Shown: piece by piece, positions 39,873 to 63,588 of the stretch
Position numbering within the stretch: the first letter of the stretch is position 1
Layout of the letters: every line of letters starts with the position of its first letter
From: Escherichia coli
Lineage (GTDB): Bacteria > Pseudomonadota > Gammaproteobacteria > Enterobacterales > Enterobacteriaceae
NCBI RefSeq assembly: GCF_044324875.1
Contig: NZ_CP172185.1
Length of the DNA: 64,000 nt
Direction: 5' to 3' (one strand)
Notes under the pieces: model-generated
Seen by the model: the letters and a program-made list of their open reading frames with translations, nothing else
Database searches by the model: none
Told to the model about the DNA's origin: nothing
Translations under genes and position numbers: made by a program

Positions 39873-39883
39873 ACATCCCCCTT

Positions 39884-43622: not shown

Positions 43623-45204
43623 GTGGTGTTGTCTCCTCTTCCGGCCTGCGACTCGCCGCTATCTGCTGCTGATACGCCTGCGCTATCCACACCGGACGTG
43701 AGAGTCCGGCTTTTTCCCGCTCTGCAGATTCCCTGACCTGCTGGCGGAAAATGTCCTGATAATCCTCACCCATCAGCGCCAGCTCTTTCTCATACGTGCT
43801 CAGTCCGGCCTCAATGCGCATCACCGATTCCTGGACCTCCTTGAGCCCGTCAATGGCCATTCTTCCGGCTCCAATCCACTCTGCCCGTGACCAGGATGAA
43901 CGCGCCTGATAAAAATCAAAACGCGCCCGTGGCGGACGAATAATCCCCCGCAGAAGAGCCTCTTCCAGCCAGCAGGAAAACATCTGCGTGGCCAGCCGGG
44001 CCGCAATAAATTTTCGCCGCCCCATAAAATAGCGCCACGACTCATTGGCGGAGGCGCGGGCACTTGAATAACTGACCTTCGAGTAATCACGGGACAACTG
44101 TTCGTAGGAAACGCCAAGACCGGCGGCGATATACCGCAGCAGCGCCTGTTCAAGCGCAGAAAATCCATTGTCTGAATCCTGCGCAGTCTGTAGTTTCAGA
44201 TCATCACCGGGGAAAAGGTGCGGAATTTTGACACCGCCCAGTGTCACGTTATTCGTGTCATACCAGCTGGAGAACTTCTCCAGAATATTAATAAGCGGAT
44301 TATCCTTCTGCCCCTCCGGCGCACCGGCGATATATTCAAAGGCCTTTTCGGTATCAAGTTCACTTTCAATCGTCGCTGCATACATCGCCTTCACTATGGC
44401 TGACTGAAGCTGTGTTGCCTGCAGGGAATCGAGCATTTTCAGCCGTTCCATGACGCTGTAAAACTGATTAGCCCCACGGGTCTGCCCGTCCTCAACCGGC
44501 TCGAAAATATGCAGCATGGCCGGACGCCCGGTGGGAAGTTCACGCGGGATCCGTTCCCATCGTCCACTACCAGAGAGCGGAAAATCATCCTCACAGATAT
44601 GGTACGCAACGGCCCGTCCATGCCGATCGACCTCCACCCCGGCCCGCAGAAAGCGGTTCCCCAAACCGTATCCTGGCGTGTCCACCCGTTTCGGACTCAC
44701 GGCTTTAAAACGCGTACGAAACAGCTGCGTAGTCTCCGCATCCCAGACCGGCTGCACAAAGATTTCGCCGTTAAACGCATGAACGCCCACGCCTTCCCGG
44801 ATAAATTCCGTGAACGTGCGTTTTCCTTCCACGTCGATCTCGCCAGACATCCCTTCGGCGTATTCCGACCAGGCCGCCTCCACCTCATCGACAAAGCTTT
44901 TTGCTGCGGTCTCCCGCATCCCCAGCCAGCGCCAGTTCGGACGGTAGCTGATCAGAAACATATGCCCGACTATGTGATCCTTATGCAGGGCCACCGCATT
45001 AGCCGCTATTCCGTTATTGCGCACCAGATCATCTGCCCGGGCATTCCCCAGACGCAACGCGGGCAGCAGGGCCGCATCGACACTCTGCGCCGGTGGCAAC
45101 CACTCCGCCATTTGCCCGCCAAATCCTGCGCCGCCCCCGTTGTAGCTGAGACTCTCACGAAGCGGAACGCCGTTCACATCAATCAGGACAGGCGTTCTTT
45201 TCAT
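43612..45204 (-). CDS. Portal protein (lambda gpB-like)
   Basis: 530 aa in lambda B position between W and C. Confidence 0.9.
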   Translation of the reverse strand: MKRTPVLIDVNGVPLRESLSYNGGGAGFGGQMAEWLPPAQSVDAALLPALRLGNARADDLVRNNGIAANAVALHKDHIVGHMFLISYRPNWRWLGMRETAAKSFVDEVEAAWSEYAEGMSGEIDVEGKRTFTEFIREGVGVHAFNGEIFVQPVWDAETTQLFRTRFKAVSPKRVDTPGYGLGNRFLRAGVEVDRHGRAVAYHICEDDFPLSGSGRWERIPRELPTGRPAMLHIFEPVEDGQTRGANQFYSVMERLKMLDSLQATQLQSAIVKAMYAATIESELDTEKAFEYIAGAPEGQKDNPLINILEKFSSWYDTNNVTLGGVKIPHLFPGDDLKLQTAQDSDNGFSALEQALLRYIAAGLGVSYEQLSRDYSKVSYSSARASANESWRYFMGRRKFIAARLATQMFSCWLEEALLRGIIRPPRARFDFYQARSSWSRAEWIGAGRMAIDGLKEVQESVMRIEAGLSTYEKELALMGEDYQDIFRQQVRESAEREKAGLSRPVWIAQAYQQQIAASRRPEEETTPRET

Positions 45205-45407
45205 AACCTCACTCCCAGCGGACGACGGCGACGTCGGGTTGTCCCCAGTACCGACTCCGCATCATTGATCGCCCGGTTAAGCTCATCCAGAGAAGCCGCC
45301 GTATATTCAATTCTGCGACCATCTTTCTGGACAGACACCACCCGTTTACCGGTTAATAAATCAAGGCGCGCCTGACGCAGCGCCTGCAGTTCAGCGACTG
45401 TAACCAT
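45201..45407 (-). CDS. Head-tail joining protein (lambda gpW-like)
   Basis: 68 aa, same length as lambda W. Confidence 0.85.
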   Translation of the reverse strand: MVTVAELQALRQARLDLLTGKRVVSVQKDGRRIEYTAASLDELNRAINDAESVLGTTRRRRRPLGVRL

Positions 45408-47319
45408 TCACTCCTCCGGACAGCTTCGCTGCCAGTTCTTTAAGGGTTGGCCGGGTCGTCTCTTCTTCCCGGGATTTTGCCAGTACAGCCAGATCAAGCT
45501 GCCAGCGTTGCACGGACACACGTAATGCCGCGTAGGCATACACCAGGCAGTCCAGCGCTTCGTTACGCCGCTTTTTGTTATCCCACAGCAGACGCATCTT
45601 TCCTTTTTCCCACTTCTCCACAAGCTCTTCCGCGACCAGTTGCTGCGCCTCTGTCTGCGAAAAAATCTCCGGATCATCAGGAAAACGGATAGCATACGAC
45701 GTGGATTCATCCGCAGGCGTGGGAGCGGCTTTCATACGGGCATAGAGAATTTCTTTTGCGGTGTCTGTCCCCACTTCACACAGATACACGCCCCGCTGAT
45801 TGCGGGTTTTTGGCATGGTGATCACCGGCTTGCCATAGACAGATGCGCCTTTTACCGGCAGCACCCGGAAAACACCGTGTTTTTTTGACCTCTGATAAAC
45901 GATTTCTCCATCGATCCCCCCGATGTCCCAGCAGACACGGGAAATGGTCATTTCGGTTCCGTCTGCATGGCAGTATTTTTTGTTGATCGCTGCATCCACA
46001 CGTAACAGCGTCTCTTCCTCATCGGGACGCCCCATAATAATGATTTTATCCACCAGAAAGGCTTCCTCTCCCGGAGCCCATCCCCAGACATACATCTCAA
46101 AACGGTTTCGCTGCGAGTCAATGCCCGCCGTCAGATAAACCACCCGGGCAGGCACCGCCGCCGTGTAACGCACAACCTTATCCATCAGTACCTGGTGATC
46201 GAGTTTTTCGCCCACGGCCTCTTCCCAGGTCTCGCCCAGCGTGGTGTTCACAAAGGTTTTCAGGCCGTTGGGATCTTTCAGTGCATCCAGCCAGTCATAG
46301 ACTATCTGTACCCAGGTGGTGAACGGACTGTACGCCGTCCAGATATGGAAAGTGATGGAGCGCGGCGGCGGAATTTCATCACCCCGGGCGCTGAAAAACA
46401 TCAGGCCGTCACGGGTCCACATCCCCGTGTTTTCACAGATCCACCGCCCGTTACTCTGGTCAAGCTCAGACTGATGGATCACACAGCCATGATGCTCACA
46501 AAGGTAGAAAACGCTTTCGGGGCTGTCCTTCTCCCATTTAAGGCCAAAAGGCGTGGATTCATCGCCAAATTTCAGATACTGCGCCTCCCCACAGTGCGGG
46601 CAGGGCACATAAAAACGCATGAAATGTGCCGACTCGTTAGCGGCTTTTTCGATCTGGCAGGAGCCTTTGATTTTAGGCGTCGAGCCGCGAATGGATTTTG
46701 GCCATACAGAGCCCTCAATACGCTTATCCCCCAGCAGGGTTGGCGAGCCCTCTTTTTCAACATCAGGTTCAAACGATGAGAGTTCGTCATAGCAGACCAC
46801 GTCCACGGATTTTTCACGGTAGTTTTTTGCTGCCGCACCACCCAGGCACCAGAAGCCCACACCCGATGAAAAGCGTTTCAGCGTGAGAGTATTGTCACGA
46901 TGTTTACGCCCCAGCCATGGAGAAAGGTCTTTCAGACATGACACATCCCGAATCGTCGCCTCCACGTGAGACTTCATAAAATCTTCAGCGGCAGAATCCG
47001 TGGGCTGAAAAAGCAGACTGTTTCGGGATTTATGCTCAATAAAATACCCGACCACCCCCAGCAACATCTTTGTATAACCAATACGGGCAGATTTAATCAG
47101 GTTAACAGTGCGAATCAGATCGTTGCCCATACAGTTCATGATGGCGATCTGGAACGGCAGCGTTTTCCATTCTCCCTCACCATATGAAGATTCTTTAGGC
47201 AGATAATAATTTTGATCAGCCCATTCAACTGCCGTCACCGGCAATGCCCTTATCAGGGGCTGTAATGCTGTTGTGACAGCACTCATCATATTATTCAGTT
47301 GTTGCTCTGATATATTCAT
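45391..47319 (-). CDS. Terminase large subunit (lambda gpA-like)
   Basis: Start refined to MNISEQQL (642 aa); conserved blocks match lambda A. Confidence 0.92.
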   Translation of the reverse strand: MNISEQQLNNMMSAVTTALQPLIRALPVTAVEWADQNYYLPKESSYGEGEWKTLPFQIAIMNCMGNDLIRTVNLIKSARIGYTKMLLGVVGYFIEHKSRNSLLFQPTDSAAEDFMKSHVEATIRDVSCLKDLSPWLGRKHRDNTLTLKRFSSGVGFWCLGGAAAKNYREKSVDVVCYDELSSFEPDVEKEGSPTLLGDKRIEGSVWPKSIRGSTPKIKGSCQIEKAANESAHFMRFYVPCPHCGEAQYLKFGDESTPFGLKWEKDSPESVFYLCEHHGCVIHQSELDQSNGRWICENTGMWTRDGLMFFSARGDEIPPPRSITFHIWTAYSPFTTWVQIVYDWLDALKDPNGLKTFVNTTLGETWEEAVGEKLDHQVLMDKVVRYTAAVPARVVYLTAGIDSQRNRFEMYVWGWAPGEEAFLVDKIIIMGRPDEEETLLRVDAAINKKYCHADGTEMTISRVCWDIGGIDGEIVYQRSKKHGVFRVLPVKGASVYGKPVITMPKTRNQRGVYLCEVGTDTAKEILYARMKAAPTPADESTSYAIRFPDDPEIFSQTEAQQLVAEELVEKWEKGKMRLLWDNKKRRNEALDCLVYAYAALRVSVQRWQLDLAVLAKSREEETTRPTLKELAAKLSGGVNGYSR

Positions 47320-47800
47320 CGAGTAAATCCGGTAATTTATCCCCTGCCCGCGCACACTGATTTGCCCCCTTCGCAATAAGGGTTTTCAGATGGTCAAGAT
47401 GGCGCGGTGTTAAATCAGGAAACTGTCGTTGCATGGATAAAGGGATGGAATCAAGCGTACTGGATAACGCCATTGCCAGCTTGCTGAGGGCAAAAATACA
47501 GAATCCGGTGTCAATAAGTTTTCCTTTTGACACCTCATTTTTTAACTGCTGTGTAACAGCCTGTTCTGCTGTCAGTTCCCATCTGGCAATAAGCAATTTC
47601 TCCTCATAGTCGTCTTCGCTATCGCCATCAGGCACATCGTTTTTACTTCTTCTCAGATACGATATGTAAAAATCACGCCAGGCATCCAGATCCAGTTGCC
47701 CTCGCTTATTCGATATCGGGGCACCCGGCAATTTCTGCAGTCTGCGAAGCTGGCGATCGGTCAGACTCAAATGCCTGGCAACTTCAGTCTGCGTAGCCAC
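47291..47800 (-). CDS. Terminase small subunit (lambda Nu1-like)
   Basis: 169 aa; winged-HTH N-terminus; overlaps the start of A as in lambda. Confidence 0.88.
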   Translation of the reverse strand: MATQTEVARHLSLTDRQLRRLQKLPGAPISNKRGQLDLDAWRDFYISYLRRSKNDVPDGDSEDDYEEKLLIARWELTAEQAVTQQLKNEVSKGKLIDTGFCIFALSKLAMALSSTLDSIPLSMQRQFPDLTPRHLDHLKTLIAKGANQCARAGDKLPDLLDEYIRATTE

Positions 47801-47999
47801 TGTTCACCTCGCAAAAAATCTCCCCTCATGCGTTTTAAACATGCATCTTGCGAGCAACTTTATGCAAACGCACGCATATGTCCGGTTTGTTTGTACATTT
47901 TTTGCACATGTCCGGTTCGCAGAAAGCATGTTTTTATATTTTTCATATAGTTAACTTGCAGAGAAACCGGACATGGATCCCGGAAAATTTTCATAAATA

Positions 48000-48035
48000 G
48001 CGAAAACGCGCGAGGTCGACGCCCCGTAACGGGCC
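48000..48035 (-). other. cos site (cosN cohesive-end sequence GGGCGTCGACCT at 48013..48024, with cosB-like flank)
   Basis: Minus strand reads ttacggggcgtcgacctcgcgcgttttcgctatttatgaaaattttccgg, near-identical to the lambda cos region; 224 bp upstream of Nu1. Confidence 0.8.
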
Positions 48036-48174
48036 GGATTGCCGGAAAGGACCCGAAAAAACGAGAATAATTATCACTTACAGCAAGAATCGAATCTGAT
48101 CTATTCTGATGCTTGCTATTATGTGCCGGCACAAGTGCGTCGTTTACCGTCATTTCACACAGAGGCATCATCAA

Positions 48175-48426
48175 ATGAAAATCAGAAATATTCTCGCTAT
48201 CTCCCTTGCAACATCATCCTTCAGTTGCCTGGCATTTAAACCCTCGCCCAATGTGCTACCAGGACCAACGAATCAACTAACTGCGGTAGAAAGTAAAATT
48301 ATCGGACATTTTTATGCCCCACACAGTGCATTACCCGGAACAACCATCACAGGGACATGTGACGCCTCCCCCATTCCGGGATGCACCTGTCCGTTTTGTA
48401 CTATGCTGCGTAGCCAAAACCGATAA
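48175..48426 (+). CDS. Small secreted Cys-rich protein (signal peptide MKIRNILAISLATSSFSCLA)
   Basis: ATG with GAGG-type RBS; hydrophobic leader; opposite strand to the phage late operon. Confidence 0.4.
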   Translation: MKIRNILAISLATSSFSCLAFKPSPNVLPGPTNQLTAVESKIIGHFYAPHSALPGTTITGTCDASPIPGCTCPFCTMLRSQNR

Positions 48427-48790
48427 CATCCGCATTTACCTGGTATTCCATGATGAGTTCACGCAGCGACTGATAGAGGAAGGAAAGATGGTTAGCAAAA
48501 GCAAAGGCGCATTGCCGCCGCATGCTGCAGGCATTGCAACAGACGAGAGCAGATATTTTTGACCAGTTGGAAAACTGCCAGCATACTTTGCCCGAGCATA
48601 TCGCCATCTCATCGGAAACCAGTGCAACTCTTATTCATCGGGTTACACCAGAGAAAAAGAAGAAATGAACAGTGAGGCGTTGTGTGGCATACAACGCCTT
48701 CTTCCATCATTTCTCGTCAGCCATGACAAAAATATAACCGCTGGCTCTTTCATTTTTCTCCTGCTTCCAGCCCCTCTCTACCTGGAAGCA

Positions 48791-49117
48791 TCAGGGACGT
48801 GATGGCGTAAAGATAAATTGTCTCTTCACTCCCTGACGGGGACTATTCTTTTCAAATCTCCATTTCGCCATGGCCTTCACCACTTCATCACGAAACAAAT
48901 TATGAGGCTCTGAGCGGAGAAAAACGATCCGTGTCACAGTCCCGTCAGCACCAATATCGAACTTAACCTCAACCAGCCCCTTGATATAATTTGCTGCAGC
49001 ATATTCCGGATATCGTGGATACACCGTCACTAATTGCCGGGGCTCATCAGCTTTTTGCTGCGAGCATCCCACTGCCAGGGCAGATAACAGAAAAAGTAGT
49101 GAAAGGCGTCTTTTCAT
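48791..49117 (-). CDS. Lipoprotein with TonB C-terminal-like domain
   Basis: Signal peptide plus Cys (MKRRLSLLFLLSALAVGC); C-terminal 75 aa align motif-by-motif with the E. coli TonB C-terminal domain. Confidence 0.6.
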   Translation of the reverse strand: MKRRLSLLFLLSALAVGCSQQKADEPRQLVTVYPRYPEYAAANYIKGLVEVKFDIGADGTVTRIVFLRSEPHNLFRDEVVKAMAKWRFEKNSPRQGVKRQFIFTPSRP

Positions 49118-49548
49118 TTTTATTCCTACGGGTCTTATTCTGACAATATATCCTGTGTTCCAGACTGCCACATCACCACATCCTGTGCCATTATCTGACT
49201 CACATTACATACATCGCATCAGGATACAGTAGTAGCACTTTCTGTAATACAGCTTCCGGTTTCTTCCACCATCGCACCGGACAGGCGACTATGAGGGATA
49301 AACCCGCGAATCATTAACGCGGTAAAAACCCGGTGTACATCGTTTTTGATTATTCCCGCACACTCGCGCAGAAGGAGTTCCCCGTCGGGCTACGGTTTCT
49401 GTTCATACGGGAATACGGCGACTATATAGCGAATGATGTGTCAGGCTTGAATACCTTTATCCGTTAAAAGGGATATCAATTAAGTTATCCCGTACAGGGT
49501 ATAAGCCATTATCAAAGCCACTCTGTAGCGAATGGCTTTTGTAATGGA

Positions 49549-49998
49549 CTATTTAATTAGTGATGCTGCGTATTCGATTAGATATAACTTAGGTGCCAGC
49601 CAGATTTTTAACCATGTCATATTGGTTACTGCACAAATAATAAAAATCCCCCACATAGTCAAAACTCCAACCAATGGCACGATAAGAAGATTAATATCAC
49701 CTTTGCTATCCCAAACCATTGTCGGCCTGTATTTGGGATTTCCCTTCTCCCATGAATATCCTTCATCACCGATTTTACCTGTCTCAACTCTTTGGCACTG
49801 CTTCTTCATAAACCAGAAAACCAGAGGGATTGTTGAAATGGCTATTAATGTTTTAATCAGGCTATCAACCATATTCCATACCAGCAACTGATGAACAACA
49901 TCCGGAATCTGAGCCTGACTGAATGCAATGGCGGAATCAATTCCATCGCTGGCCTTCTTCAATAAATCAACAAGAATTTTATTTGCTTCTTCTTGCAT
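49549..49998 (-). CDS. Small inner-membrane protein encoded in AT-rich DNA (start at internal Met MQEEANKIL)
   Basis: Two or three predicted TM helices; sharp drop in GC at about 50000; upstream part of the 209-aa ORF is a different, GC-rich reading context. Confidence 0.45.
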   Translation of the reverse strand: MQEEANKILVDLLKKASDGIDSAIAFSQAQIPDVVHQLLVWNMVDSLIKTLIAISTIPLVFWFMKKQCQRVETGKIGDEGYSWEKGNPKYRPTMVWDSKGDINLLIVPLVGVLTMWGIFIICAVTNMTWLKIWLAPKLYLIEYAASLIK

Positions 49999-50174
49999 GT
50001 TTATATCCTGTAAGTTGTAAACCGGTTCGAACAAATAAGTTACCAAGAGAGACAAAGATACCGAGCAACCACGGTCGCACACGATGTTTATCGCAGTAAC
50101 CAGAACTGTCTGTGATTGTACCTGCGCATCCACGCTTACGGCAGGCACGTGGGATTCGTGATGGCATAAATACC

Positions 50175-50375
50175 TCACACCCTGTTCAGTTGAATGACGG
50201 GCTGATTCTCGATATGTTCTGCTGTCAGTCTGAAAGTCACAGTGACTGTTGGTGGCTCGCCTCCGCGTGACTCTGTCCTGGCGGAAAGCTGCCCCTCCAG
50301 TAACTCACCATTAACTGCAATCCCATACCCTGCGAAATGTTTACCGCGATAAAGTTTTGCCAGTTGGTAATTCAT
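50175..50375 (-). CDS. Hypothetical small protein
   Basis: 66 aa ORF translationally coupled (ATGA overlap) to the upstream small ORF. Confidence 0.4.
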   Translation of the reverse strand: MNYQLAKLYRGKHFAGYGIAVNGELLEGQLSARTESRGGEPPTVTVTFRLTAEHIENQPVIQLNRV

Positions 50376-50629
50376 TTGCCTGCATCCTCCAGCGACAACC
50401 CAATTCGCCCATGAAGCAATGTGGCCGATACAATCCCGGCATTACACTCAACGATTATATCTTCATCCGTGGCATCCACTTCATATATTCGTGAATAACA
50501 TTCCGTGCATTTACCACTGAATGTACCTTCAGCCAGAACACGACCACGCTGTAAAATCCGGAACGGGATTCTTCCATTAAAGAGCTTTGCGGTTACCAGT
50601 AATTTCTTCATACATTCTCCTGATAACAA
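50372..50629 (-). CDS. Hypothetical small protein with CxxC pair
   Basis: 85 aa ORF starting 6 bp after Rz stop. Confidence 0.4.
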   Translation of the reverse strand: MLSGECMKKLLVTAKLFNGRIPFRILQRGRVLAEGTFSGKCTECYSRIYEVDATDEDIIVECNAGIVSATLLHGRIGLSLEDAGK

Positions 50630-50634
50630 AAAGG

Positions 50635-51117
50635 CTACTTAATGCACTGAGTGCGGATATACTCCTGTGCCCCTTCCAGTTGCTTCTGCATCGTCATCAA
50701 CCGTTCTCTGAGGGTGAAATAATCCCGTTCAGCGGTGTCTGCCAGTCGGGGGCTGGTTGCATTATCCACGCTGGTGGGTCCGGTGGCTTCACGCACGGCT
50801 TCGGAGCAACTGGCATTGACCCGCAGGCGCTTACGGCCAGCGGCAACATCAGCGCGCAGAGTTTCATTTTCAGCTTTCGCATTGGCTAATTCTCTCGAGT
50901 ACTTTGCATCGAGCGCAGCAACATCACGCTGACGCTGCTGCATGTCAGTAATGGTGGCGGTCGCCTGCTTCAGTTCACTGACTTTTTTATCACGCTGTTC
51001 TTTGTAGGCTATGGCGTTATCACGGTAATGATTGACCGCCAACGACAGGCAGACGATGATGCAGATAACCAGAGCATAAATAATCGCGGCGACTCTGCTC
51101 ACTGATCTATCCCCCAA
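50635..51117 (-). CDS. Rz i-spanin
   Basis: 160 aa with N-terminal TM and coiled-coil; near-identical blocks to lambda Rz. Confidence 0.92.
50697..50882 (-). CDS. Rz1 o-spanin lipoprotein, embedded in Rz in +1 frame
   Basis: 61 aa with lipobox and proline-rich core (…[30 protein letters not shown]). Confidence 0.9.
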
Positions 51118-51632
51118 CAGGCTAATGCGCTTTCCTGGTCACGACGAATAACCTGTCCATAGCAGTTATTTGAACGTATGCGGCAATCGCGCCCACCATC
51201 TTTTATCCACCAGCGAATCGCCTCGCATGCGCCCTTACGATCACCGGCATTCAGCCGCTTATAAAACGTCGACGGGAAACACTTACCGGGGCCAATGTTA
51301 TAGGGACAGAATGACGCAATACCCGCTTTCTGTGCTTCGGTCAGTGGAACTTTAATATTGCGCTCCACCCATGCCAGCGCCTTATCACGCTCAATGGCAT
51401 TAACCTGAGCGCATTTTTCCTTCGACAGCTTCATTCCGGGAAAAACGTGTTTTCCATCCACCACCGTGGCACCGCGGCAGATGGTCCATATGCCAGAACC
51501 ATCGCGGTATGCCGTTGTGTGGTTACCCTCTTTTTCGTCCAGAAACTGATCAAGTATCTGAGGAGCAGATGCGCCAGCACCAATCAGCGCCAGAACGGCA
51601 GCCGACAGGCCGTATCTGATTTTTGCGTTCAT
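51099..51632 (-). CDS. SAR endolysin (phage 21-type lysozyme)
   Basis: 177 aa with weakly hydrophobic N-terminal signal-anchor ([16 protein letters not shown]) and lysozyme-like body. Confidence 0.85.
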
Positions 51633-51755
51633 GTATATTTATCAGGATCTAAAGGTTTATAATCCTGGATATATCAGGTATATAATCCAGTACCAGCATG
51701 TCTCATAAACATACCCGTTCAGGAAAACCAAACGACAACAGATGAGGCTTCAGAA

Positions 51756-52133
51756 ATGAACAGTAAAGAAAATTTGCGCAGTAGATTTTTGCAACTAATG
51801 ACAGAAAAAGTTAAATCAGCGCTACTTCCACTTATGGTGGATAATAACGAAGCAACGAGCAGCATCCTTGCAGACCCTTACGGTAAACTCTCGCATAAAA
51901 CGCTGGATATTATTATGAGTGCATTAACACCCCATATGCTTCAACACCTGAAACAAGATATTAACGCATGGGTGAATGAAGAATTGAGCCCCCCCTGTTC
52001 ATGGGACAGACATTATGCATGGCAGCAAAAAATGAGGATTTTCAATTCATTATCACTAAAGTTCAGAGAACCGAAACAGCGTCCCTTCCCTCTGGAATCA
52101 GACAAAAAACAACCTGATCCCACAGGCCCGTAA
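51756..52133 (+). CDS. Hypothetical protein inserted between holin and endolysin on the opposite strand
   Basis: 125 aa ORF with AT-rich upstream region and a downstream hairpin; no recognisable domain. Confidence 0.5.
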   Translation: MNSKENLRSRFLQLMTEKVKSALLPLMVDNNEATSSILADPYGKLSHKTLDIIMSALTPHMLQHLKQDINAWVNEELSPPCSWDRHYAWQQKMRIFNSLSLKFREPKQRPFPLESDKKQPDPTGP

Positions 52134-52213
52134 TATTTTGAATACCGTGATTATTGATATCACAATGAAAGCTATTCCGCACAGTTATGCCCTGCTCCCC
52201 ACGGGGCATGTCT

Positions 52214-52238
52214 CATGAAACGTTCCGGGCGTTTCATG
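52214..52238. terminator. Hairpin between convergent genes (catgaaacg-ttccggg-cgtttcatg)
   Basis: Perfect 9-bp inverted repeat between the 3' ends of the plus-strand ORF and the holin. Confidence 0.4.
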
Positions 52239-52289
52239 TTCCCGGATTTTGTTAAAAGGTATATTATCCCCTCACTCCCGGGATATTCG

Positions 52290-52562
52290 TCATATTTCTT
52301 TTGGTGCCTTTTTCGCAATCTCAGCCACAGCATGTGCCGTAGCCGGAACATTACCGGCATTAGTTCGTTCCAGAATTTCGAGCAATATGCGGGTTCGTTT
52401 TTCCTGCTCCCGTTTGTTAAGGCGATAAGTAAGAACGCCAAGAATGATACTGAACGCCACGCCGATAATAAATCCCCAATCCTGCAGTGACAGGCTGGCA
52501 AAGAACGCAACAAGTCCTGCGCTGCCGTATGCAGCGTTACTGTATCGTTCGTCCATTCTCAT
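52290..52562 (-). CDS. Holin (class II, phage 21 S-like)
   Basis: 90 aa with two TM segments and charged C-terminus, upstream of the endolysin. Confidence 0.7.
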   Translation of the reverse strand: MRMDERYSNAAYGSAGLVAFFASLSLQDWGFIIGVAFSIILGVLTYRLNKREQEKRTRILLEILERTNAGNVPATAHAVAEIAKKAPKEI

Positions 52563-52977
52563 AGTCCCTCACCTCCGCCATCCGACATTACGGACGGCAG
52601 CAAGTCAGAATCTCGTTATAAAAAAGCCGCACGAAGAGGCTGTTTGTTCAGGTATTTTATCCAGTGCGCCGTAAAACCCCGACCTTCAGGGTGTGGAGGA
52701 TGTCAACATCAATAACTGACATTCTGCCCAAAGCTCCCGAAGATTCCCTTTGCACAATTTCACTGACCGGATCTCAGCACAAGCCACAGGGAATGGTCAG
52801 TGTGACGCTCTCTGTGGCCCCTCCTGAAAAGCCCTGTGGTTTAATCGCGACGGACCTGGCGCGGATATGAAGCAGGCCGTGAGCACGAGCCTGGAAATTT
52901 AGTGCCGACTACCGGAATTGAAGTGGTGGCCTGATGGTTACAACTAAACTGTTCTGCCGACTGAGGTAAGTCGGCGC

Positions 52978-53054
52978 TGGACCGCCACCGGGGACTCGAA
53001 CCCCGCACAGTCAGCTTAGAAGGCTGATGCTCTCTCATGATGAGCTAGTGGCGG
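52978..53054 (-). tRNA. tRNA-Arg (anticodon UCU)
   Basis: Folds by eye: 7-bp acceptor (CCGCCAC/GTGGCGG), D arm, anticodon loop CTTCTAA, T arm CGGGG-TTCGAGT-CCCCG. Confidence 0.7.
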
Positions 53055-53055
53055 T

Positions 53056-53131
53056 TGGTGGCCCTTGCTGGATTTGAACCAGCGACCTGGCGATTATGAG
53101 TCGCTCGCTCTCACCACTGAGCTAAAGGGCC
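53056..53131 (-). tRNA. tRNA-Ile2 (anticodon CAU), ileX/ileZ-like
   Basis: GGCCCTTTAGCTCAGTGGTGAGAGCGAGCGACTCATAATCGCCAGGTCGCTGGTTCAAATCCAGCAAGGGCCACCA; very close to E. coli ileX. Confidence 0.8.
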
Positions 53132-53253
53132 GTATGCGGAATAATACTTATGCCAGTTTTGCTCTGCAATACCCTTCCCTGATTAAATCCTGCATATTGG
53201 CCTACACATGGTAAAAGAATTTGAGCGGTCAACAGAAAATTACTCAGGCAATA

Positions 53254-53967
53254 TTAACGCACTCTGACTACATTAATTTCGAAGTCATCAATCTGCCCGC
53301 TATTAAGTATAACGAATGTAGAACTCCCATTACTGTACGATTTCGACAACACCAGCCTGTCATCATAGCGTGCAAGAACATAATACCAGACACTATCATA
53401 GTGGAGCATCTGATATTCCTTCTTAAACTGGGGTTTGTACCAACCGGCAATAAGTGAAAATCCCCAGAAATAGATCATGAATTCGACCATCATACACTCA
53501 ATCCAGTGATGACGAATAAAAGACATTTCCGAAAAACATTTGACTGAAATAAGTCTTCTTCCTGACCTGACAAAAACCGTAATTATTAAGGCAGCAATAA
53601 CGCATAAAACCAATGCATCTAGCGCAACGCGTCGATGAATTACTGAAAACTCCAGAGCAGGCGGAACAAAAAGCAACAATATCGCCAGAAAAAGTCTGAT
53701 AAAACTCAGATCCTGCACATTATTTTTTTGTTTGATCCCCAGGAAGAAAACAACACCGACTCCCCACCCAATCAGGAATATAACAATGACTGTAACGGCA
53801 TAAAAAAGGCTTCTGGCCACATCATCGACACCAGCCCCAACCACCCACCATGGGAAACCATAATAAAAGGATGTACCCCAGCCATAAAAGTAAGCGCTTC
53901 CCCACCCAAGACATCCCATATAAGCAACAAAAAGTGAAGAGTACCTGAGCAGAGTACTGTCATCCAT
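53254..53967 (-). CDS. Aromatic-rich polytopic membrane protein of unknown function (AT-rich cargo)
   Basis: 237 aa with several TM segments and soluble C-terminal domain; lies between Q-like gene and tRNAs. Confidence 0.55.
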   Translation of the reverse strand: MDDSTLLRYSSLFVAYMGCLGWGSAYFYGWGTSFYYGFPWWVVGAGVDDVARSLFYAVTVIVIFLIGWGVGVVFFLGIKQKNNVQDLSFIRLFLAILLLFVPPALEFSVIHRRVALDALVLCVIAALIITVFVRSGRRLISVKCFSEMSFIRHHWIECMMVEFMIYFWGFSLIAGWYKPQFKKEYQMLHYDSVWYYVLARYDDRLVLSKSYSNGSSTFVILNSGQIDDFEINVVRVR

Positions 53968-54103
53968 AGCAACACCATTAACAACTCAAAAACATAACAA
54001 TATATTGCATAACAAATGGAGCTCCATGTAGTCAAGAAGCTTCATAGCAGGAAAAACTCATAGCACAATAGCTATCACATTTAATGTTCTGTGTCTTTTT
54101 CAG

Positions 54104-54134
54104 GTATAAAAAAACCCACTCGGCGGCGGGTTTT
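54104..54134 (-). terminator. Intrinsic terminator downstream of the Q-like gene (candidate tR' of the late promoter)
   Basis: Minus strand AAAACCC-GCCGCCGAGU-GGGUUUU followed by a U-run. Confidence 0.5.
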
Positions 54135-54217
54135 GCTTGATTTGCCATTACGTACAAAATCGGCAGAATATCAAATTCACACGAAATATATGCCTTTTAA
54201 TCTACTTTTGCAATACT

Positions 54218-54892
54218 TTACTGTGAAAATGCCGCCTTTTGTTTTGAACGTGTTCTCGTCACAAACAATAAAGCCTCACTATCCAGCCGGTGAAAAATGT
54301 GTTTCATTGCAATCCAGTGACCAGTAAATGTTTTGGACCAGTTTTTGGCTGTCACTCCCGCCAGTAATGCCAGATCCTGGTATTCGTAACCTTCCTTACC
54401 AAAAATTTCTGCTTTTACTGCCTGCGCCGCCAGCCAGATTAATTTTTTCAGGCGTTCCCGTGTTTTCTCTGCAATTTTCCTGTTGCCACAATGGGCCTTA
54501 AACTCTTCCCATGCCCAGTGGGTTATAGTGACCTGATACTCCCAGCAAATACTCCCGCTGTAACACCACAACAACCAGGCTTTCTGATGTTCTTCAATAG
54601 ACAGAACCGCCCGCCGCCATGATGATGTCGAAAACTCAACCGGGCTGACCAGGGCAATTGATGAGCCTTTCGCCAGCGATTGTTTTCCCGGGATTGGTGG
54701 ATTATCCCGCGTTATCATTTTTCCAGTCACTTCATCGCGGTACCGGATTTTTTTACGCCTGTAACGCCCTGTATCGAACATGGCATTCTCCTGCCAGGCT
54801 TCAAGCTGACCTTTTGTTGCCCCACTCAAATCAGCGGTGGCGATAATGAGCTGCTCACGCACAAACTGTAAATACTGGTTATTCATGCGCAC
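54218..54892 (-). CDS. Late-gene antiterminator Q-like protein (Qin QuuQ-type)
   Basis: 224 aa directly downstream of rusA and upstream of the terminator/lysis region; call is by position and size. Confidence 0.5.
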   Translation of the reverse strand: MRMNNQYLQFVREQLIIATADLSGATKGQLEAWQENAMFDTGRYRRKKIRYRDEVTGKMITRDNPPIPGKQSLAKGSSIALVSPVEFSTSSWRRAVLSIEEHQKAWLLWCYSGSICWEYQVTITHWAWEEFKAHCGNRKIAEKTRERLKKLIWLAAQAVKAEIFGKEGYEYQDLALLAGVTAKNWSKTFTGHWIAMKHIFHRLDSEALLFVTRTRSKQKAAFSQ

Positions 54893-55248
54893 TCCAGTTC
54901 TGTGATTTTTATCCCCAGCCGCCCACCAGGAACGGGCTGACCGCGCACAATATTAATTTCATCAAACTGCTCGTCGTCTATGAATAGTCCGGCATGCGTC
55001 AGTGCATCCAGTGGTGCCTTCAGGATATTGTCCAGGTCGCGGCGGCGCTTATCCGGTGGCTCTGCAATAATTTTTATTGCCAGCCTTCCGGACAGGTTTA
55101 ATTTCAACCGCTGTTGGCGAACAATTAACGCCACATCCCGGCGATAACGTTCACCGACTTTTGATACAAAATATGTGCTGCCACGACGTCGCCAGTAAGT
55201 ATTCACCGTTGGCGGGTAAGGCAAAACAAATTCTATGTGTTCAGTCAT
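54883..55248 (-). CDS. rusA: RusA Holliday-junction resolvase
   Basis: 121 aa; RRRDLDN motif and overall match to RusA. Confidence 0.85.
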   Translation of the reverse strand: MTEHIEFVLPYPPTVNTYWRRRGSTYFVSKVGERYRRDVALIVRQQRLKLNLSGRLAIKIIAEPPDKRRRDLDNILKAPLDALTHAGLFIDDEQFDEINIVRGQPVPGGRLGIKITELECA

Positions 55249-56397
55249 TTATGCATTCCACTTCAGGACGCCCGAATTTTTCGCGTGCATTAAAAAACAA
55301 ATCAACAACAACAGCTGGCTGCCGTGTTTTTCTTCAAATTCTTTTACCCCGGCATGCAGTTCGTTGTGGCATTTACGACACAGCGGAATAACAAATAAAT
55401 CGTCAGCCTTTGTTCCCATCCCTCCCAGTCCATGACCAATGATGTGATGCGGATCATCTGCCTGATTGCCACACGTCATGCATTTCTGCGTTTTTACCCA
55501 GCGCGTGTATACGGGCATCTCTTCCCGTTGTGGTTTCTGGCGCCGGAGATACTGAGCCGGAGAATCGGGATCAACGGTAAGGGTGACCACCTTATTTTCC
55601 TGTGGTCGGTTCTGTTGCTGGTGGGTCGGCAGCACAAGATTTTTTGTGCGCTGTTTCAGTATGCTGGTGGCGGTCTTTTCTCCTGGTATGATGTCGCTTT
55701 CGCGGTATACAGAGCGTATTTTTTCCGCAGGTAATCCCATCGAACGACTCAATACTGTCTCGGGTAGTGCATCCGTCACCTGATTGCACACCGCCCACCA
55801 GCATAATTCAGCCAGCGATAATTCCCGCTCCTGCGTGCCGTTCATTGCATGGCGTATGACGTCAATCATCCATTCTGCCTGGTTTTGTTGAGCAAGTTGC
55901 TCAAGTGATTCGGATGTCTGGTCACGCAGCTGGTTGTCGCAGTGCCAGCACAACACCATCGCTCCGGTACCGTAACGATGTATGACGGTTTCACTGTGAT
56001 GATAGTCACCATGAGGCCACTGGCAGGATTTGACATGACGCAACAGCCAGTCAGACAGTGCACCAGCGCCGCCGGCAGCACGAATCACACGCTCATTGCT
56101 GAAAAATGGGAGTAATGATTTATCTTCCGCCAACGGCTGGCGAACGGCAGGAACGACTCCGGACGGCAGACCGCGCATGCTTTTCGGTTCAGGCTCCACC
56201 AGCACACGCCCCTGCATAAACAAAGGCATCGCATCAGGACCGGGTCTGAAAAGTACAATCCCCAGACGGTGAGCAATTTCAGGTGTCACTAATACCCTCA
56301 CGTTACCTCCAGATCCGTTGCTGGTACGTGCGGGATGGACGCGGTGGGCGTTCGGAATAAGGGAGCCTGACGGAGATGATCCAGTACAGGCGGTCAA
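55249..56397 (-). CDS. DUF968-type protein with C-terminal HNH-like zinc motif (YdfU-like); start uncertain
   Basis: C-terminal CxxC...HHIIGHGLGGMGTKADDLFVIPLCRKCHNELH. Confidence 0.6.
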   Translation of the reverse strand: MTACTGSSPSGSLIPNAHRVHPARTSNGSGGNVRVLVTPEIAHRLGIVLFRPGPDAMPLFMQGRVLVEPEPKSMRGLPSGVVPAVRQPLAEDKSLLPFFSNERVIRAAGGAGALSDWLLRHVKSCQWPHGDYHHSETVIHRYGTGAMVLCWHCDNQLRDQTSESLEQLAQQNQAEWMIDVIRHAMNGTQERELSLAELCWWAVCNQVTDALPETVLSRSMGLPAEKIRSVYRESDIIPGEKTATSILKQRTKNLVLPTHQQQNRPQENKVVTLTVDPDSPAQYLRRQKPQREEMPVYTRWVKTQKCMTCGNQADDPHHIIGHGLGGMGTKADDLFVIPLCRKCHNELHAGVKEFEEKHGSQLLLLICFLMHAKNSGVLKWNA

Positions 56398-56635
56398 GAC
56401 TTAGGTCTTTCTGAAACTCGTAACCACGTCTGCGGTAGTTCTGAATTAGCCACTCTGCCTGTTCTTCAGTACATGGATCATGCCGGAACCAGTCAGATTT
56501 GAATGCGTGTGAATGCCGCCCGTGCCTGCTGGCAAAGACGGCGAGATTATCAGAATTGTGTAATCTGGTATCGTGCGCCATCCGTTGTCTCTGCTGGCGC
56601 AGCAGGTGCCAGTTGTTCAGGCTGGCTGGAGGCAA
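56303..56635 (-). CDS. Hypothetical nin-region protein
   Basis: 110 aa ORF; overlaps the extended start of the next gene so one of the two starts is wrong. Confidence 0.4.
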   Translation of the reverse strand: MPPASLNNWHLLRQQRQRMAHDTRLHNSDNLAVFASRHGRHSHAFKSDWFRHDPCTEEQAEWLIQNYRRRGYEFQKDLSLDRLYWIISVRLPYSERPPRPSRTYQQRIWR

Positions 56636-56716
56636 TATTGTCTCTGATTTCTGTTGTCGTCAACAGGCAGCGTGCTATCATCGAATGGTGTTCTATCCTA
56701 CTCCGTGAGGTTTACC

Positions 56717-56974
56717 ATGCGTACAACCCAACAATTCAGTATTACATTAACTAACGAGATGGCTGACATGGTGCGCTCCCGTGTGGCTTCCGGTGCCTAT
56801 GCTTCAGAAAGCGAGGTCATTCGTGAAGGGCTTCGCGCACTGAATGAGCGCGATAAAGCAATCGAAGCGTGGTTAACGCATTCAGTCGCCCCCTCTCTTG
56901 ATTCTATCCGCGAAAACCCAAACAACGGACGCTCCATTTCACAGGTTCGCGCCGCGATTAGATCCGGGAAGTAG
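56717..56974 (+). CDS. ParD-like type II antitoxin (ribbon-helix-helix)
   Basis: Start at internal Met (MRTTQQFSITLTNEMADMVRSRVASGAYASESEVIREGLRAL); 6 bp before the toxin gene. Confidence 0.7.
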   Translation: MRTTQQFSITLTNEMADMVRSRVASGAYASESEVIREGLRALNERDKAIEAWLTHSVAPSLDSIRENPNNGRSISQVRAAIRSGK

Positions 56975-56979
56975 TCTGC

Positions 56980-57279
56980 ATGACATTTGAAGTCATCATT
57001 ACCCCCGAGGCCGAACAGCAGATAATAAACCTGCACAGATATATAACGGAGAAAGCAGGAGGCGTCATTGCTGACAATTATGCCAATGCGCTTCTTGATT
57101 ATCTTGATGGGTTTTCTGCATTTCCGCATCGGGGCAATAAACGCGATGATATTCGCCAGGGGATGCGGGTAACTCATTTCCGCCACAGAACGATTATTGC
57201 TTTTGCCGTTGATGACAATAAAGTCTTTATCGCAGGTGTTTATCATGGCGGACAAAGTTATGAAACCGATTTCTTATAA
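56980..57279 (+). CDS. ParE/RelE-family toxin
   Basis: 99 aa basic protein immediately downstream of the antitoxin. Confidence 0.7.
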   Translation: MTFEVIITPEAEQQIINLHRYITEKAGGVIADNYANALLDYLDGFSAFPHRGNKRDDIRQGMRVTHFRHRTIIAFAVDDNKVFIAGVYHGGQSYETDFL

Positions 57280-57361
57280 ACTTGTCCCCACAGAATTCCG
57301 GTGTTAGAATAAAATGTCCGCCCGCTCTCTTGCTGGCGGATTCGTAAGCCATATAAATCAA

Positions 57362-57397
57362 AGCTCCCGACTCATGTTTGTGTCGGGAGCTTTTTTC
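57362..57397 (+). terminator. Intrinsic terminator after the toxin gene
   Basis: agctcccgac-loop-gtcgggagc followed by six T. Confidence 0.65.
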
Positions 57398-57483
57398 AAC
57401 GATTTATCCCCAACCGCAAATAGAATACATCACCAGCGCCTCCGCCATTGCAATTCCTGCCGTTGTGAATGCTTCAGGCCAGG

Positions 57484-59926
<2,443 letters not shown>

Positions 59927-59954
59927 TCATGCCCTTCCTGATAATTAATCTCGC

Positions 59955-60131
59955 TCATTCATCGCCCCACTCATCACAATATGCTTCGACCGGAGTTTTT
60001 CCTGCTTCGTAGTCATCACGCCAGGCTTCAGCATCAGCAGCACTTCCACCACGTAACTCTGCATAATCCATTAACAGTTCATGCCATTCTTCAAAACTGA
60101 CGTTGTATTTAGTTGAACCAAAACCAGCCAT
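59955..60131 (-). CDS. Hypothetical small acidic protein (58 aa)
   Basis: Hand-translated ORF below the ORF-track cutoff; its ATG lies 20 nt before the stop of the upstream ORF. Confidence 0.3.
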   Translation of the reverse strand: MAGFGSTKYNVSFEEWHELLMDYAELRGGSAADAEAWRDDYEAGKTPVEAYCDEWGDE

Positions 60132-60306
60132 TTTGTTCTTCCTCTTCGTCTTTTATTTCGTGATATGAGTAATTGCAGTAGTTAAAGAAAATTTCTTTTG
60201 CTTCGTCATGAATTTCATCAGGTGTTGCGTCATCGTCCACTTCGAATACATCCTCAAAATCTCCACCAGCTATTCCAGTTTCAATAATTATTTTGAACTT
60301 TCGCAT
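60109..60306 (-). CDS. Hypothetical small acidic protein (65 aa)
   Basis: ORF in phage early-right region. Confidence 0.35.
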   Translation of the reverse strand: MRKFKIIIETGIAGGDFEDVFEVDDDATPDEIHDEAKEIFFNYCNYSYHEIKDEEEEQNGWFWFN

Positions 60307-60399
60307 TTCACTACCGCCCTTTCGGGTGGCCTCCTGCTGTTCTGAAGGTGCAGAAATCCCTCCGGTTAAGGATTAAATTTTTAACAGTGCTAAATTTAA

Positions 60400-60756
60400 T
60401 TATTCAGTTCTGGATTTTGTCACCCTGCGTATCCGCGCTTTCGCGTTACGCTCAATCTGAATTAGCTTTTCTATATTTTTTCGCCTTTCCCGTTCCTCCT
60501 GGCGCAAGAGCCTTACATCATCTGCCAGTCTGGTTTCTCTTTTCGCCACAGAGAGCATCCAGTCAAATGGCTCCACAACTGCACCGCAGATTTTACAGCG
60601 GACCTGACGCTCTTTTTCGTCAACCCGGACAGAGGCGTGATGACAATATGGTCTTTCCGATGGCTCATAAAGAAAATTAACCTGATTACGTGGGTCATCC
60701 TCTTTTACCGGAAATAAAACAATATTACTTAACTCATCTTCTGCTTTTATTTCCAT
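60400..60756 (-). CDS. Hypothetical zinc-ribbon protein
   Basis: 118 aa with CHH...CxxC motif and basic C-terminus. Confidence 0.45.
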   Translation of the reverse strand: MEIKAEDELSNIVLFPVKEDDPRNQVNFLYEPSERPYCHHASVRVDEKERQVRCKICGAVVEPFDWMLSVAKRETRLADDVRLLRQEERERRKNIEKLIQIERNAKARIRRVTKSRTE

Positions 60757-60809
60757 GCTCCTCTCCTTTGATGCGAATGCCAGCGATAATTGAAGCCTGA
60801 TAGCTAATT

Positions 60810-61265
60810 TTACTCACAGCCCCCCTGATAATTTCCCTGATAAAACGCCAGCACGCGCTGCATAACTTCGCTCTTCCTGCACTCGCAACAGATTATGTTC
60901 TGACGCCTGTCGTAGCGGCGTATTTCTCCGTCTGGTAATGACCAGATAAGGTCAGGATCAACCACAACCGGTTTTTTCACCTTTTCCCTTGATAGTTTTT
61001 TGCGGGCGTTTTGCCAGTCTTTACGCGCCTGCTCAGACGGGAATAATCCGTAGCCTGAATTGTATACATCACCACTGGCAACCAGCTCTCTGGCAAGAAC
61101 GCTCAGCAGATATCTTGTCGCACCTGTTTTCGCTTCCAGTTGTCGTAACGTCTCGCGCCCGCTCTGTCGCACGAGTTCGACAACCTGCCTCTTAATTTTT
61201 TCCCGCTCTTCCTGTGTAAATACTTTTTTCACAAGTCCTCCTGAAAAATCTCCTTCACAATTCAT
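60810..61265 (-). CDS. Hypothetical nin-region protein
   Basis: 151 aa ORF with 4-bp overlap to the P-like gene. Confidence 0.45.
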   Translation of the reverse strand: MNCEGDFSGGLVKKVFTQEEREKIKRQVVELVRQSGRETLRQLEAKTGATRYLLSVLARELVASGDVYNSGYGLFPSEQARKDWQNARKKLSREKVKKPVVVDPDLIWSLPDGEIRRYDRRQNIICCECRKSEVMQRVLAFYQGNYQGGCE

Positions 61266-61725
61266 ACAAAACCAGCCGCTTTCCGGCGTTCATACTCCTG
61301 TTTCAGCAACTCAATTGGCGTTGGTCCCGACGGGCGTTTGGGGGCCGCCAGTTGTCGCCGGACTGGCGGAACGCTGAGGCCCATACCAACATGCTTTGAC
61401 CATTTCGTCAGTTGCCGTTCTGCAAACCGTTTTAACTCCCCTTCGGTCATCTGGCGTTCAATCCCCTTTGAACGCATCTCGAGGCATATGTGATACAGCA
61501 CAGGCTGAGACCACGGGTATTTATCGCTTCCGTCGTATCGCCAGGACTCATTGCGCCAGCGTCGGTACTCCTCCATCACAGCACCCACCGTCAGACCGAA
61601 TGGATTGGCCCCGCTTTCCGGAATCAGTGCCACAAACTCAGCCAGGTCAGGAGGCCATGTTTCACCCGCCCGGCAGCGGTCCATGCACTGGCGGCAGACC
61701 TGCCGGATTTGCTGCTCAGTCATCG
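61262..61725 (-). CDS. Replication protein P-like (helicase loader); start uncertain, ORF could extend to 61927
   Basis: C-terminal region resembles lambda P (YPWSQPVLYHICLEMRSKG...); start set to the Met overlapping the upstream stop. Confidence 0.55.
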
Positions 61726-62726: not shown

Positions 62727-62796
62727 AATTGCCTCTTCTGATACCGAATTCCTTAATCACGTACTACCGAAAGCGATCCGGTATAACTATTGCCAG

Positions 62797-63487: not shown

Positions 63488-63588
63488 AGCTACTCCTTAG
63501 TAAACACAGCAAAAGAATACCCATAGGTAAACAAAAGTCAATACCCTTGGGTTGTTTACCTTGCGGTAATCGCATCTATTATTTACCT
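63488..63588. promoter_or_regulatory. Divergent promoter/operator region with three copies of an AGGTAAACA-type site
   Basis: cataggtaaaca, ggttgtttacctt and atttacctatgg between divergent regulator genes. Confidence 0.5.

Follow-up and report, generated by a model that had tools for sequence, protein, structure and literature searches.

The stretch of Escherichia coli DNA analyzed here (64,000 nucleotides, hereafter the window) contains a lambdoid prophage with no stx gene, in which a short array of tRNA genes lies on the minus strand between the late-gene activator Q and the lysis genes. We consider it very likely, with a probability of about 85%, that this is the late-region array of a non-stx lambdoid phage, composed of a live tRNA-Ile2(CAU) gene, a live tRNA-Arg(UCU) gene and a dead tRNA-Thr gene of the thrU type, and from which a Gly gene is missing. 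As such, the feature is of an ordinary and already understood kind. tRNA arrays downstream of Q are a textbook trait of lambdoid and Stx phages, and the Q-to-lysis interval is a conserved slot, which in Stx phages holds ileZ-argN-argO and stx. In SfI, Sf6, ST64T, PS3 and phage 21, tRNA genes that include a Thr(UGU) gene are also located downstream of Q (PMC3636060).

The position of the array with respect to Q, as given in the original prediction, was confirmed by the analysis of the neighbouring genes. The open reading frame at 54218-54892 (minus strand) matches the Pfam family PF06323, Phage_antiter_Q, with 303.6 bits (E = 1e-90), and at the same site of NZ_CP080260, a genome 99.8% identical to the window, PGAP places a "bacteriophage antitermination protein Q". 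A RusA gene lies upstream of Q. Between Q and the tRNAs, the list of open reading frames contains a 237-aa ORF (53254-53967, minus strand), for which no match was found in Pfam and whose counterpart, found at the same position in loci L004 and L007, is annotated as a hypothetical protein. About 340 nt downstream of the array, the lysis cassette starts with a holin-like gene (52290-52562, minus strand), whose Pfam holin matches are weak and below the curated cut-offs, and whose counterpart in identical genomes is labelled "phage holin family protein" by PGAP; a lysozyme gene follows (51099-51632; PF00959, 87 bits). An E. coli chromosome 99.8% identical to the window, annotated by PGAP, shows an identical gene order, with the tRNA-Ile and tRNA-Arg genes labelled and the third element unlabelled. 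As a side observation on codon content, based on crude ORF calls and with no host baseline, ATA, AGA and ACA are commoner in the ORFs of the 48-64 kb region than in those of the 32-48 kb region.

When the whole window was searched with ARAGORN, two tRNA genes were called, both on the minus strand, and no functional third tRNA. The first gene (53056-53131), with anticodon CAT in the ARAGORN call, scored 72.5 bits with the Rfam tRNA model RF00005, whose cut-off is 29 bits (E = 6e-14 over the 64-kb window). Both ileZ of Stx2a_F349 and the gene carried by the UPEC 26-1 prophage are 100% identical to it, and 68 out of 76 positions are identical to K-12 ileX. In genomes 99.8% identical to the window, the same sequence is labelled tRNA-Ile by PGAP. 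On the strength of its identity to ileZ and its relationship to ileX, the gene is to be read, by kinship, as an ileZ-type tRNA-Ile2 rather than as an elongator or initiator tRNA-Met, in agreement with what had been predicted. In tRNA-Ile2, C34 of the anticodon is converted into lysidine by TilS, after which the tRNA decodes AUA.

The second gene (52978-53054), predicted to be a tRNA-Arg(UCU), was called by ARAGORN as Arg with anticodon TCT and scored 53.8 bits with RF00005 (E = 9e-9 over the 64-kb window). Its minimum-energy fold is the cloverleaf, with -33 kcal/mol. The scaffold is of the argN type, being homologous to argN of the Stx phages 933W and Stx2a_F349, where the anticodon is TCG; only 54 out of 77 positions are identical to host argU. 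A tRNA-Arg with anticodon UCU decodes AGA and AGG. The conserved G18-G19 of the D-loop, which in tRNAs makes the elbow contact with the T-loop, is absent from this gene, because its D-loop AUCAUGAGA reads U18-G19 as the result of a private change of G18 to U at window position 53037; loci L004 and L130 have AUCAGGAGA and keep the GG.

The third element occupies positions 52900-52975 of the minus strand, with a body of 73 nt (52903-52975) followed by CTA (52900-52902) instead of CCA. The tRNA-like sequence had been placed at 52903-52977; the part 52903-52975 holds, whereas the last two positions, 52976-52977, correspond to the 2-nt spacer that separates it from the CCA of tRNA-Arg. As originally described, the element retains an acceptor stem of 7 perfect pairs, GCCGACT (52975-52969) with AGTCGGC (52910-52904), and a TTCAATT T-loop, while its D and T stems are disrupted; to these the anticodon stem has to be added, 3 of whose 5 pairs are broken. 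ARAGORN made no call for this element at the default threshold or with thresholds lowered down to 85%. A call obtained at 80% lends no support to function: it is in a shifted register with a 3-pair anticodon stem, and appeared beside spurious overlapping calls on the plus strand. The RF00005 score was 19.8 bits (E = 0.29), which is below the cut-off of 29 bits and far under that of every functional tRNA examined here, as compared to 73.8 bits for thrU-identical copies. The element carries no PGAP annotation in identical sequences. On the strand opposite to the tRNAs, the Rfam model "Plastid-ycf2" gave matches below its cut-off, which are antisense-tRNA artefacts.

The comparison with thrU locates the damage. 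Substitutions are found at positions 10, 17, 20, 24, 27, 28, 30, 32, 39, 42, 43, 47, 53 and 57; 9 of these 14 affect paired positions, and pair 27-43 alone is compensated. As a result, 7 of the 21 cloverleaf pairs are broken (6 of them newly) with respect to 1 in thrU, and the broken ones include 10-25, 11-24, 28-42, 30-40, 31-39 and 53-61. The anticodon stem is left with 27-43 and 29-41 only, the D stem is down to 2 pairs and the T stem, where 53-61 is lost, to 3. Position 32 is occupied by G. G53-C61 is a near-universal tRNA pair, and an encoded 3' CCA is the norm in E. coli. The energy of the cloverleaf pairs that remain is -5.6 kcal/mol, as compared to -21.5 kcal/mol for thrU, and the minimum-energy fold is not the cloverleaf, since the 5' acceptor strand pairs with the mutated D-loop. 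In fact, the D-loop has changed from AGTAGGT to AGTCGGC, which is now the same as the 3' acceptor strand. Both D-loop changes raise the complementarity to the 5' acceptor strand and give rise to the competing hairpin. A single template switch that made the D-loop a perfect complement of the 5' acceptor strand would be an attractive origin for them; T20C, however, is found also alone in other alleles. What is intact, besides the acceptor stem, is the UGU anticodon with U33 and A37, as well as G1-C72, C2-G71, G35 and U36, which we take to be the identity elements for ThrRS.

Altogether, the score of 19.8 bits, the 7 broken pairs out of 21 and the lack of an ARAGORN call down to 85% bear out the proposal of a tRNA pseudogene. 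Divergence from thrU alone is no proof of death, given that functional tRNA-Thr genes of T4-type phages are also only 81-84% identical to thrU. It is the structural damage that predicts that the element, which we call the relic, would not be functional in ACA decoding or in rescue from the P2-OLD nuclease, discussed below.

As for its origin, blastn of the relic against K-12 thrU gave 81% identity over 74 nt (E = 9e-16), and the relic lies where related prophage arrays have their tRNA-Thr gene, aligning to the tRNA-Thr of PhiR47_1, 606R7 and UPEC 26-1. The thrU match, together with the position in the array, means that the likeness to a tRNA is not due to chance. As judged from these alignments, the relic is a descendant of the thrU-type tRNA-Thr(UGU) gene that comes third in the Ile-Lys/Arg-Thr-Gly arrays of non-Stx lambdoid prophages. 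With E. coli thrU (b3976) it has 59 out of 73 positions in common, among which are the anticodon, all of the acceptor stem and the T arm in its 3' half, whereas it differs in the 14 substitutions, the change of CCA to CTA, the 6 further broken pairs and its location inside a prophage. UPEC 26-1, IHE3034, PhiR47_1 and vB_EcoM-606R7 are the closest relatives of the whole 52902-54130 segment, with 86% identity. All four have Ile-Lys-Thr-Gly arrays, which in PhiR47_1, 606R7 and UPEC 26-1 were seen as CAT-TTT-TGT-TCC at the same place. They share with the window the first tRNA, the scaffold on which the second is built and the 237-aa ORF. Unlike in the window, the Thr gene of these arrays is intact and 100% identical to K-12 thrU, a Gly gene, also intact, is present and 100% identical to K-12 glyT, the second tRNA has the anticodon UUU instead of UCU, and the lysis cassette is a different one.

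Several other origins were considered and rejected. Descent from a tRNA-Thr of the phage 21/SfI type does not fit, since the relic is identical to SfI tRNA-Thr at only 47 out of 76 positions, which marks a separate lineage. A low-threshold ARAGORN call, "Asn(GTT)", was compared with the SfI tRNA-Asn, found identical to the relic at 39 positions, and discarded. A chimera of thrU and argO is contradicted by the fact that only 3 of the 14 departures of the relic from thrU match argO, and by the lack of any blastn alignment to argO.

That the relic is a decayed argO is suggested by its position, in the slot that argO occupies in Stx phages, and by the alignment to argO and argN of 933W proposed as a check in the original prediction. 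In 933W (NC_000924) and Stx2a_F349, ileZ-argN-argO is found in the same place as the array of the window, after Q and ahead of the lysis genes; ileZ is 100% identical to our first tRNA, and argN provides the scaffold of our second. The original prediction placed the pair where Stx phages carry ileZ-argN-argO, and indeed the two genes align to ileZ-argN of 933W and Stx2a_F349 at 86-93%. The flanks correspond as well. Upstream, a pT-like sigma-70 promoter candidate (53141-53169, minus strand; TTGCAG, a 17-nt spacer and TATTAT) ends 9 nt upstream of G1 of the first tRNA and aligns to the element annotated in 933W as "pT; putative tRNA promoter", with both hexamers conserved; a simple consensus promoter scan did not flag 53141-53169. 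Promoter-like hexamers are also present at the end of Q. Downstream, the flank at 52842-52898 (minus strand) is homologous to the argO-stxA2 spacer of 933W, with a local alignment score of 34 as compared to 13.5 ± 2.1 for shuffled sequences, none of which reached 34 in 1000 shuffles. Within this flank, a hairpin at 52873-52893 is the counterpart of the 933W terminator, annotated there as a [quoted passage not shown]; its U-run is lost in the window, and a terminator scan found nothing at 52842-52898. With both flanks in common with 933W, pT upstream and the argO-stxA2 spacer downstream, the assignment to the ileZ-argN-argO slot is well supported.

The slot and the flank that follows argO are what an argO origin has in its favour. 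The sequence of the relic itself says otherwise: with blastn at word size 7, it gave no alignment to argO of 933W or Stx2a_F349, in contrast to E = 9e-16 with thrU; its acceptor stem is that of thrU and not GCGTTGT as in argO, and its anticodon is TGT. With no more than those 3 of 14 departures from thrU matching argO, the chance that the relic derives from argO is practically negligible, and the thrU-type origin stands. The differences between the two clusters (argN with UCG as compared to UCU, argO as compared to a dead tRNA-Thr, stx as compared to none) are such that, on present alignments, the array of the window is a relative of the ileZ-argN-argO cluster and not a member of it. In the literature searched, nothing was found on ileZ, argN and argO.

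The borders of the relic coincide with changes in homology. The window is homologous to UPEC 26-1 from 54130 to 52902, a limit that coincides exactly with the 3' end of the relic; there the homology switches partner, and the flank that follows is of the type found in Stx phages. Downstream of the relic no glyT remnant was found, since Smith-Waterman comparisons with glyT, and with glyT plus its flank, scored no better than shuffled sequences, and a weak MAFFT alignment was all that such a remnant had in its favour. With respect to strain LH50-c, the window shows 20 differences over 1632 nt, 17 of which are inside the first and second tRNAs, and recombination therefore joins arrays at the tRNA borders. 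The same degenerate Thr allele is found behind three alleles of the second tRNA, one of the Arg-UCU type and two of the Lys-UUU type, and in one genome behind an IS421 insertion. In all, this rare allele was found in 22 copies, all identical over 73 nt, which are distributed over 19 genomes out of 5426 complete ones of E. coli, and also in one IMG/VR contig.

The 14 substitutions are unevenly distributed. All of them fall in the 48 nt from position 10 to position 57 (Fisher p = 0.0015). The other 25 positions, which belong to the acceptor stem, to the T arm on its 3' side, to the discriminator and to positions 8-9, carry none. This clustering is not predicted by plain neutral decay. Adenine-directed mutagenesis, of the type produced by diversity-generating retroelements, was rejected as a cause, because each of the four bases is found among those substituted. 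In E. coli, tRNAs that lie close together in a transcript are separated by RNase P, and one explanation of the clustering is that the third element, although it yields no tRNA any more, has been retained as a tRNA-like processing signal. RNase P would be guided by the intact acceptor stem and part of the T arm to a site 2 nt beyond the CCA of tRNA-Arg, and cleavage there would release tRNA-Arg at its 3' end and detach the lysis mRNA from the array. The untouched 25 positions, the spacer of only 2 nt between the element and tRNA-Arg, and the identity of 22 copies out of 22 speak for such a signal. The predicted fold, however, locks the 5' acceptor strand in the hairpin with the mutated D-loop, and the T stem, with G53-C61 broken, has only 3 pairs. 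Moreover, the 22 copies are too recent for their identity to say anything on selection, and the conserved ends coincide with recombination joints, as seen from the three alleles of the second tRNA and from the switch of partner at the 3' end. Recombination joints at the borders of the relic are alone able to explain why its ends match thrU. We consider retention as a processing signal unlikely. Stated in general terms, the clustered changes would reflect either selection for a mimic of the acceptor and T arms or recombination joints at both borders that refreshed the ends, and the evidence from the borders leans towards the latter.

Among 114 IMG/VR arrays sampled irrespective of their Thr sequence, the Thr gene was identical to thrU in 86, carried 1-5 substitutions in 27 and 14 substitutions in one. 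The RF00005 score decreased with the substitutions, from 73.8 bits (none) to 63.6 (G42U/U43C), 54.8 (G42U/U43C with G24A) and 19.8 (14 substitutions). The allele of locus L129 has 3 substitutions, all of which are in common with the allele of the window. Alleles with 6-13 substitutions were found neither among phage records nor in E. coli genomes or IMG/VR, so that the path of decay is documented only in part; phage records, E. coli genomes and three pattern scans of IMG/VR gave no closer relative of the central 48 nt. The change G42U/U43C or G42C/U43C recurs in four other alleles (L017/L027, L129, L136 and L074), and ARAGORN called a tRNA-Thr in 4 of these 5 loci (L017, L027, L129 and L074). 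Going by the tRNA models, the G42U/U43C alleles still look functional. The anticodon stem holds 8 of the 30 substitutions of the variant alleles, a mild excess over an expected 13.7% (p = 0.044, with alleles that are not independent of each other).

These changes touch the determinants of recently described nucleases. P2-OLD kills lambda-infected cells by cutting the host tRNA-ThrU after the C of paired CNG motifs in the anticodon stem, and the cells are rescued by phage tRNA-Thr(UGU) genes, that of phage 21 among them, because the CNG motifs are altered and the stem is shortened (PMC12445682). tRNA-Thr(UGU) is likewise a target of AriB of the PARIS system, which cleaves it between positions 40 and 41 (PMC12409363). 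In the relic, the 10 nt of the anticodon stem account for 6 of the 14 changes and both CNG motifs are erased, C28-U29-G30 of thrU being changed to UUU and C40-A41-G42 to CAU; U39, which belongs to the UAAU context recognised by AriB (PMC12409363), is also changed. The relic thus displays both resistance traits described by Govande et al. 2025 (PMC12445682), namely a shorter anticodon stem and changed CNG motifs. It has these traits and the anticodon in common with tRNA-Thr6, tRNA-Thr21 (phage 21) and the tRNA-Thr of T5, and the tRNA-Thr gene of phage 21/SfI is located downstream of Q as well. In contrast to the relic, which lacks a full cloverleaf, tRNA-Thr6, tRNA-Thr21 and T5 tRNA-Thr have one, and their function has been shown.

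It may be asked, then, whether the third element still works as a tRNA-Thr(UGU) of extreme nuclease resistance, or acts as a decoy to which tRNA nucleases bind; its scrambled anticodon stem would then be an adaptation against Toprim nucleases such as P2-OLD and PARIS AriB. The loss of both CNG motifs and of U39, the intact anticodon, U33, A37 and acceptor identity pairs, and the recurrence of the changes at 42 and 43 in alleles most of which are still called by ARAGORN count in its favour. Damage extends, however, beyond the anticodon stem, with the D stem reduced to 2 pairs, G53-C61 lost, a G at position 32 and CTA in place of CCA, and the score is far below those of functional tRNAs. In addition, the rescuing tRNA-Thr species have a normal cloverleaf, and according to the authors resistance is probably not caused by competitive inhibition (PMC12445682). 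We therefore regard a working tRNA or a decoy as highly improbable, even more so than a processing signal. A broader version, in which the relic is the end-state of an arms race that began with G42U/U43C, by which a CNG motif is altered and the stem shortened, and was kept as an uncleavable minimal tRNA-Thr, as a nuclease decoy or as a handle for RNase P, is also unlikely.

The G42U/U43C alleles fit the published two-factor pattern of resistance, and these first changes of the lineage were probably selected for nuclease evasion before the death of the gene. Considering that the CNG motifs are erased in the relic and that the milder alleles look functional, the relic may be a dead end of a nuclease-evading lineage.

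According to the reading that we prefer, the array would be transcribed both from the pT-like promoter and from the Q-dependent late promoter, and RNase P and RNase E would excise the tRNAs. The live tRNAs, specific for AUA and for AGA and AGG, would supplement the decoding of rare codons during late gene expression, while the relic would yield no usable tRNA. Such a loss would cost little, because host thrU supplies an identical species. Phage tRNA-Thr(UGU) genes would in general serve as nuclease-resistant replacements for the host tRNA-ThrU, as can be gathered from the P2-OLD and PARIS papers.

On its own, the feature has little importance, since annotations of both tRNA genes exist in identical genomes. 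What is gained is, in the first place, the assignment of an unannotated relic to a tRNA-Thr of the thrU type rather than to argO. Secondly, the arrays behave as cassettes that are swapped exactly at the tRNA borders, within a conserved frame that goes from the pT promoter to the terminator. Finally, the prophage tRNA-Thr genes form a graded series, from thrU-identical through G42U/U43C to dead, which parallels the anticodon-stem determinants reported in 2025 for P2-OLD and PARIS, and which offers natural alleles for testing how nuclease-resistant tRNAs evolve in temperate phages.

The homologues of the second array gene of the window, tRNA-Arg(UCU) (52978-53054, minus strand), were compared in strain LH50-c (L005), in the UPEC 26-1 prophage (L007), in loci L001, L003 and L208, and in about 116 IMG/VR loci (L009-L205). 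The anticodon carried by this scaffold varies between prophages, being UCU in the window, UCG in argN and UUU elsewhere. The UUU version, which is annotated as tRNA-Lys and shows an unusual C33, was found in approximately 88 of 116 arrays. In 26/116 arrays the gene is of a short-arm subtype, whose CAAC/GTTG stem is constant and whose loop, only 5-6 nt long, occurs as 10 different sequences; ARAGORN forces these genes into calls of Phe, Leu, Ser, stop or "???". The anticodon loop borne on this conserved prophage tRNA scaffold is hypervariable and non-canonical.

The copy in the window also carries a private substitution at the conserved G18 of the D-loop (position 53037, minus strand), so that the loop reads AUCAUGAGA and not AUCAGGAGA. 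The GG is kept in the tRNA-Arg of the 99.8% identical E. coli genome (L004) and in that of the IMG/VR contig L130, and the tRNA model score is 53.8 bits for the window gene as compared to 56.7 bits for the GG version. The second gene of the array, tRNA-Arg(UCU), may itself be impaired.

When the window was compared with LH50-c, 17 of the 20 differences observed over 1632 nt were located within tRNAs 1 and 2. The same tRNA-Thr relic sequence (52903-52975 in the window) lies behind three different second-tRNA alleles, as seen by comparing window positions 52978-53131 with LH50-c, GF4 (L207) and TUM9803 (L006); in TUM9803, the second tRNA is split by an IS421 element. The tRNA genes of the array are swapped as cassettes, with joints at the gene borders.

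Other features of the prophage were recorded around the array. In the spacer that separates the array from the holin-like gene, two overlapping features lie at 52653-52708 and 52620-52692 (minus strand). They are a stretch of 40-55 nt with 89-100% identity to many E. coli plasmids and to some phage tail genes, and a weak Rfam isrK match (16 bits, with a cut-off of 50); comparable weak isrK matches were obtained in the IMG/VR loci L129 and L027. A 237-aa ORF (53254-53967, minus strand), without any Pfam match, lies upstream of the pT-like promoter in the interval from Q to the tRNA array, and is conserved at the same place in strain 135 and the UPEC 26-1 prophage. The prophage early region includes a toxin-antitoxin pair, ParD (antitoxin) with ParE/RelE (toxin), at 56654-57279 on the plus strand, as read from the ORF list and from what PGAP annotates in the 99.8% identical genome. 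In crude ORF-based counts, ATA, AGA and ACA codons reached 11.8, 10.6 and 17.3 per thousand in the regulatory/lysis part (48000-64000) and were rarer, at 5.6, 3.1 and 9.4 per thousand, in the structural-gene part (32000-48000), a comparison made within the prophage.

Substitutions at positions 42-43 of the anticodon stem are recurrent in prophage tRNA-Thr genes that are otherwise thrU-like: G42U/U43C in the IMG/VR loci L017, L027, L129 and L136, and G42C/U43C in L074. ARAGORN still calls tRNA-Thr in L017, L027, L129 and L074. With these changes one CNG motif is altered and two basal pairs of the stem are lost, as in the published pattern of P2-OLD resistance (PMC12445682).

In related prophage arrays (L001 3921-4074 and L007 2921-3074), tRNA-Thr(UGU) and tRNA-Gly(UCC) show 100% identity to their host counterparts, thrU and glyT of K-12 (L008 389-748), where the two genes belong to a single operon with tyrU between them. 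This complete identity suggests that the prophage Thr and Gly genes were captured recently from the host, or that gene conversion with the host is ongoing.
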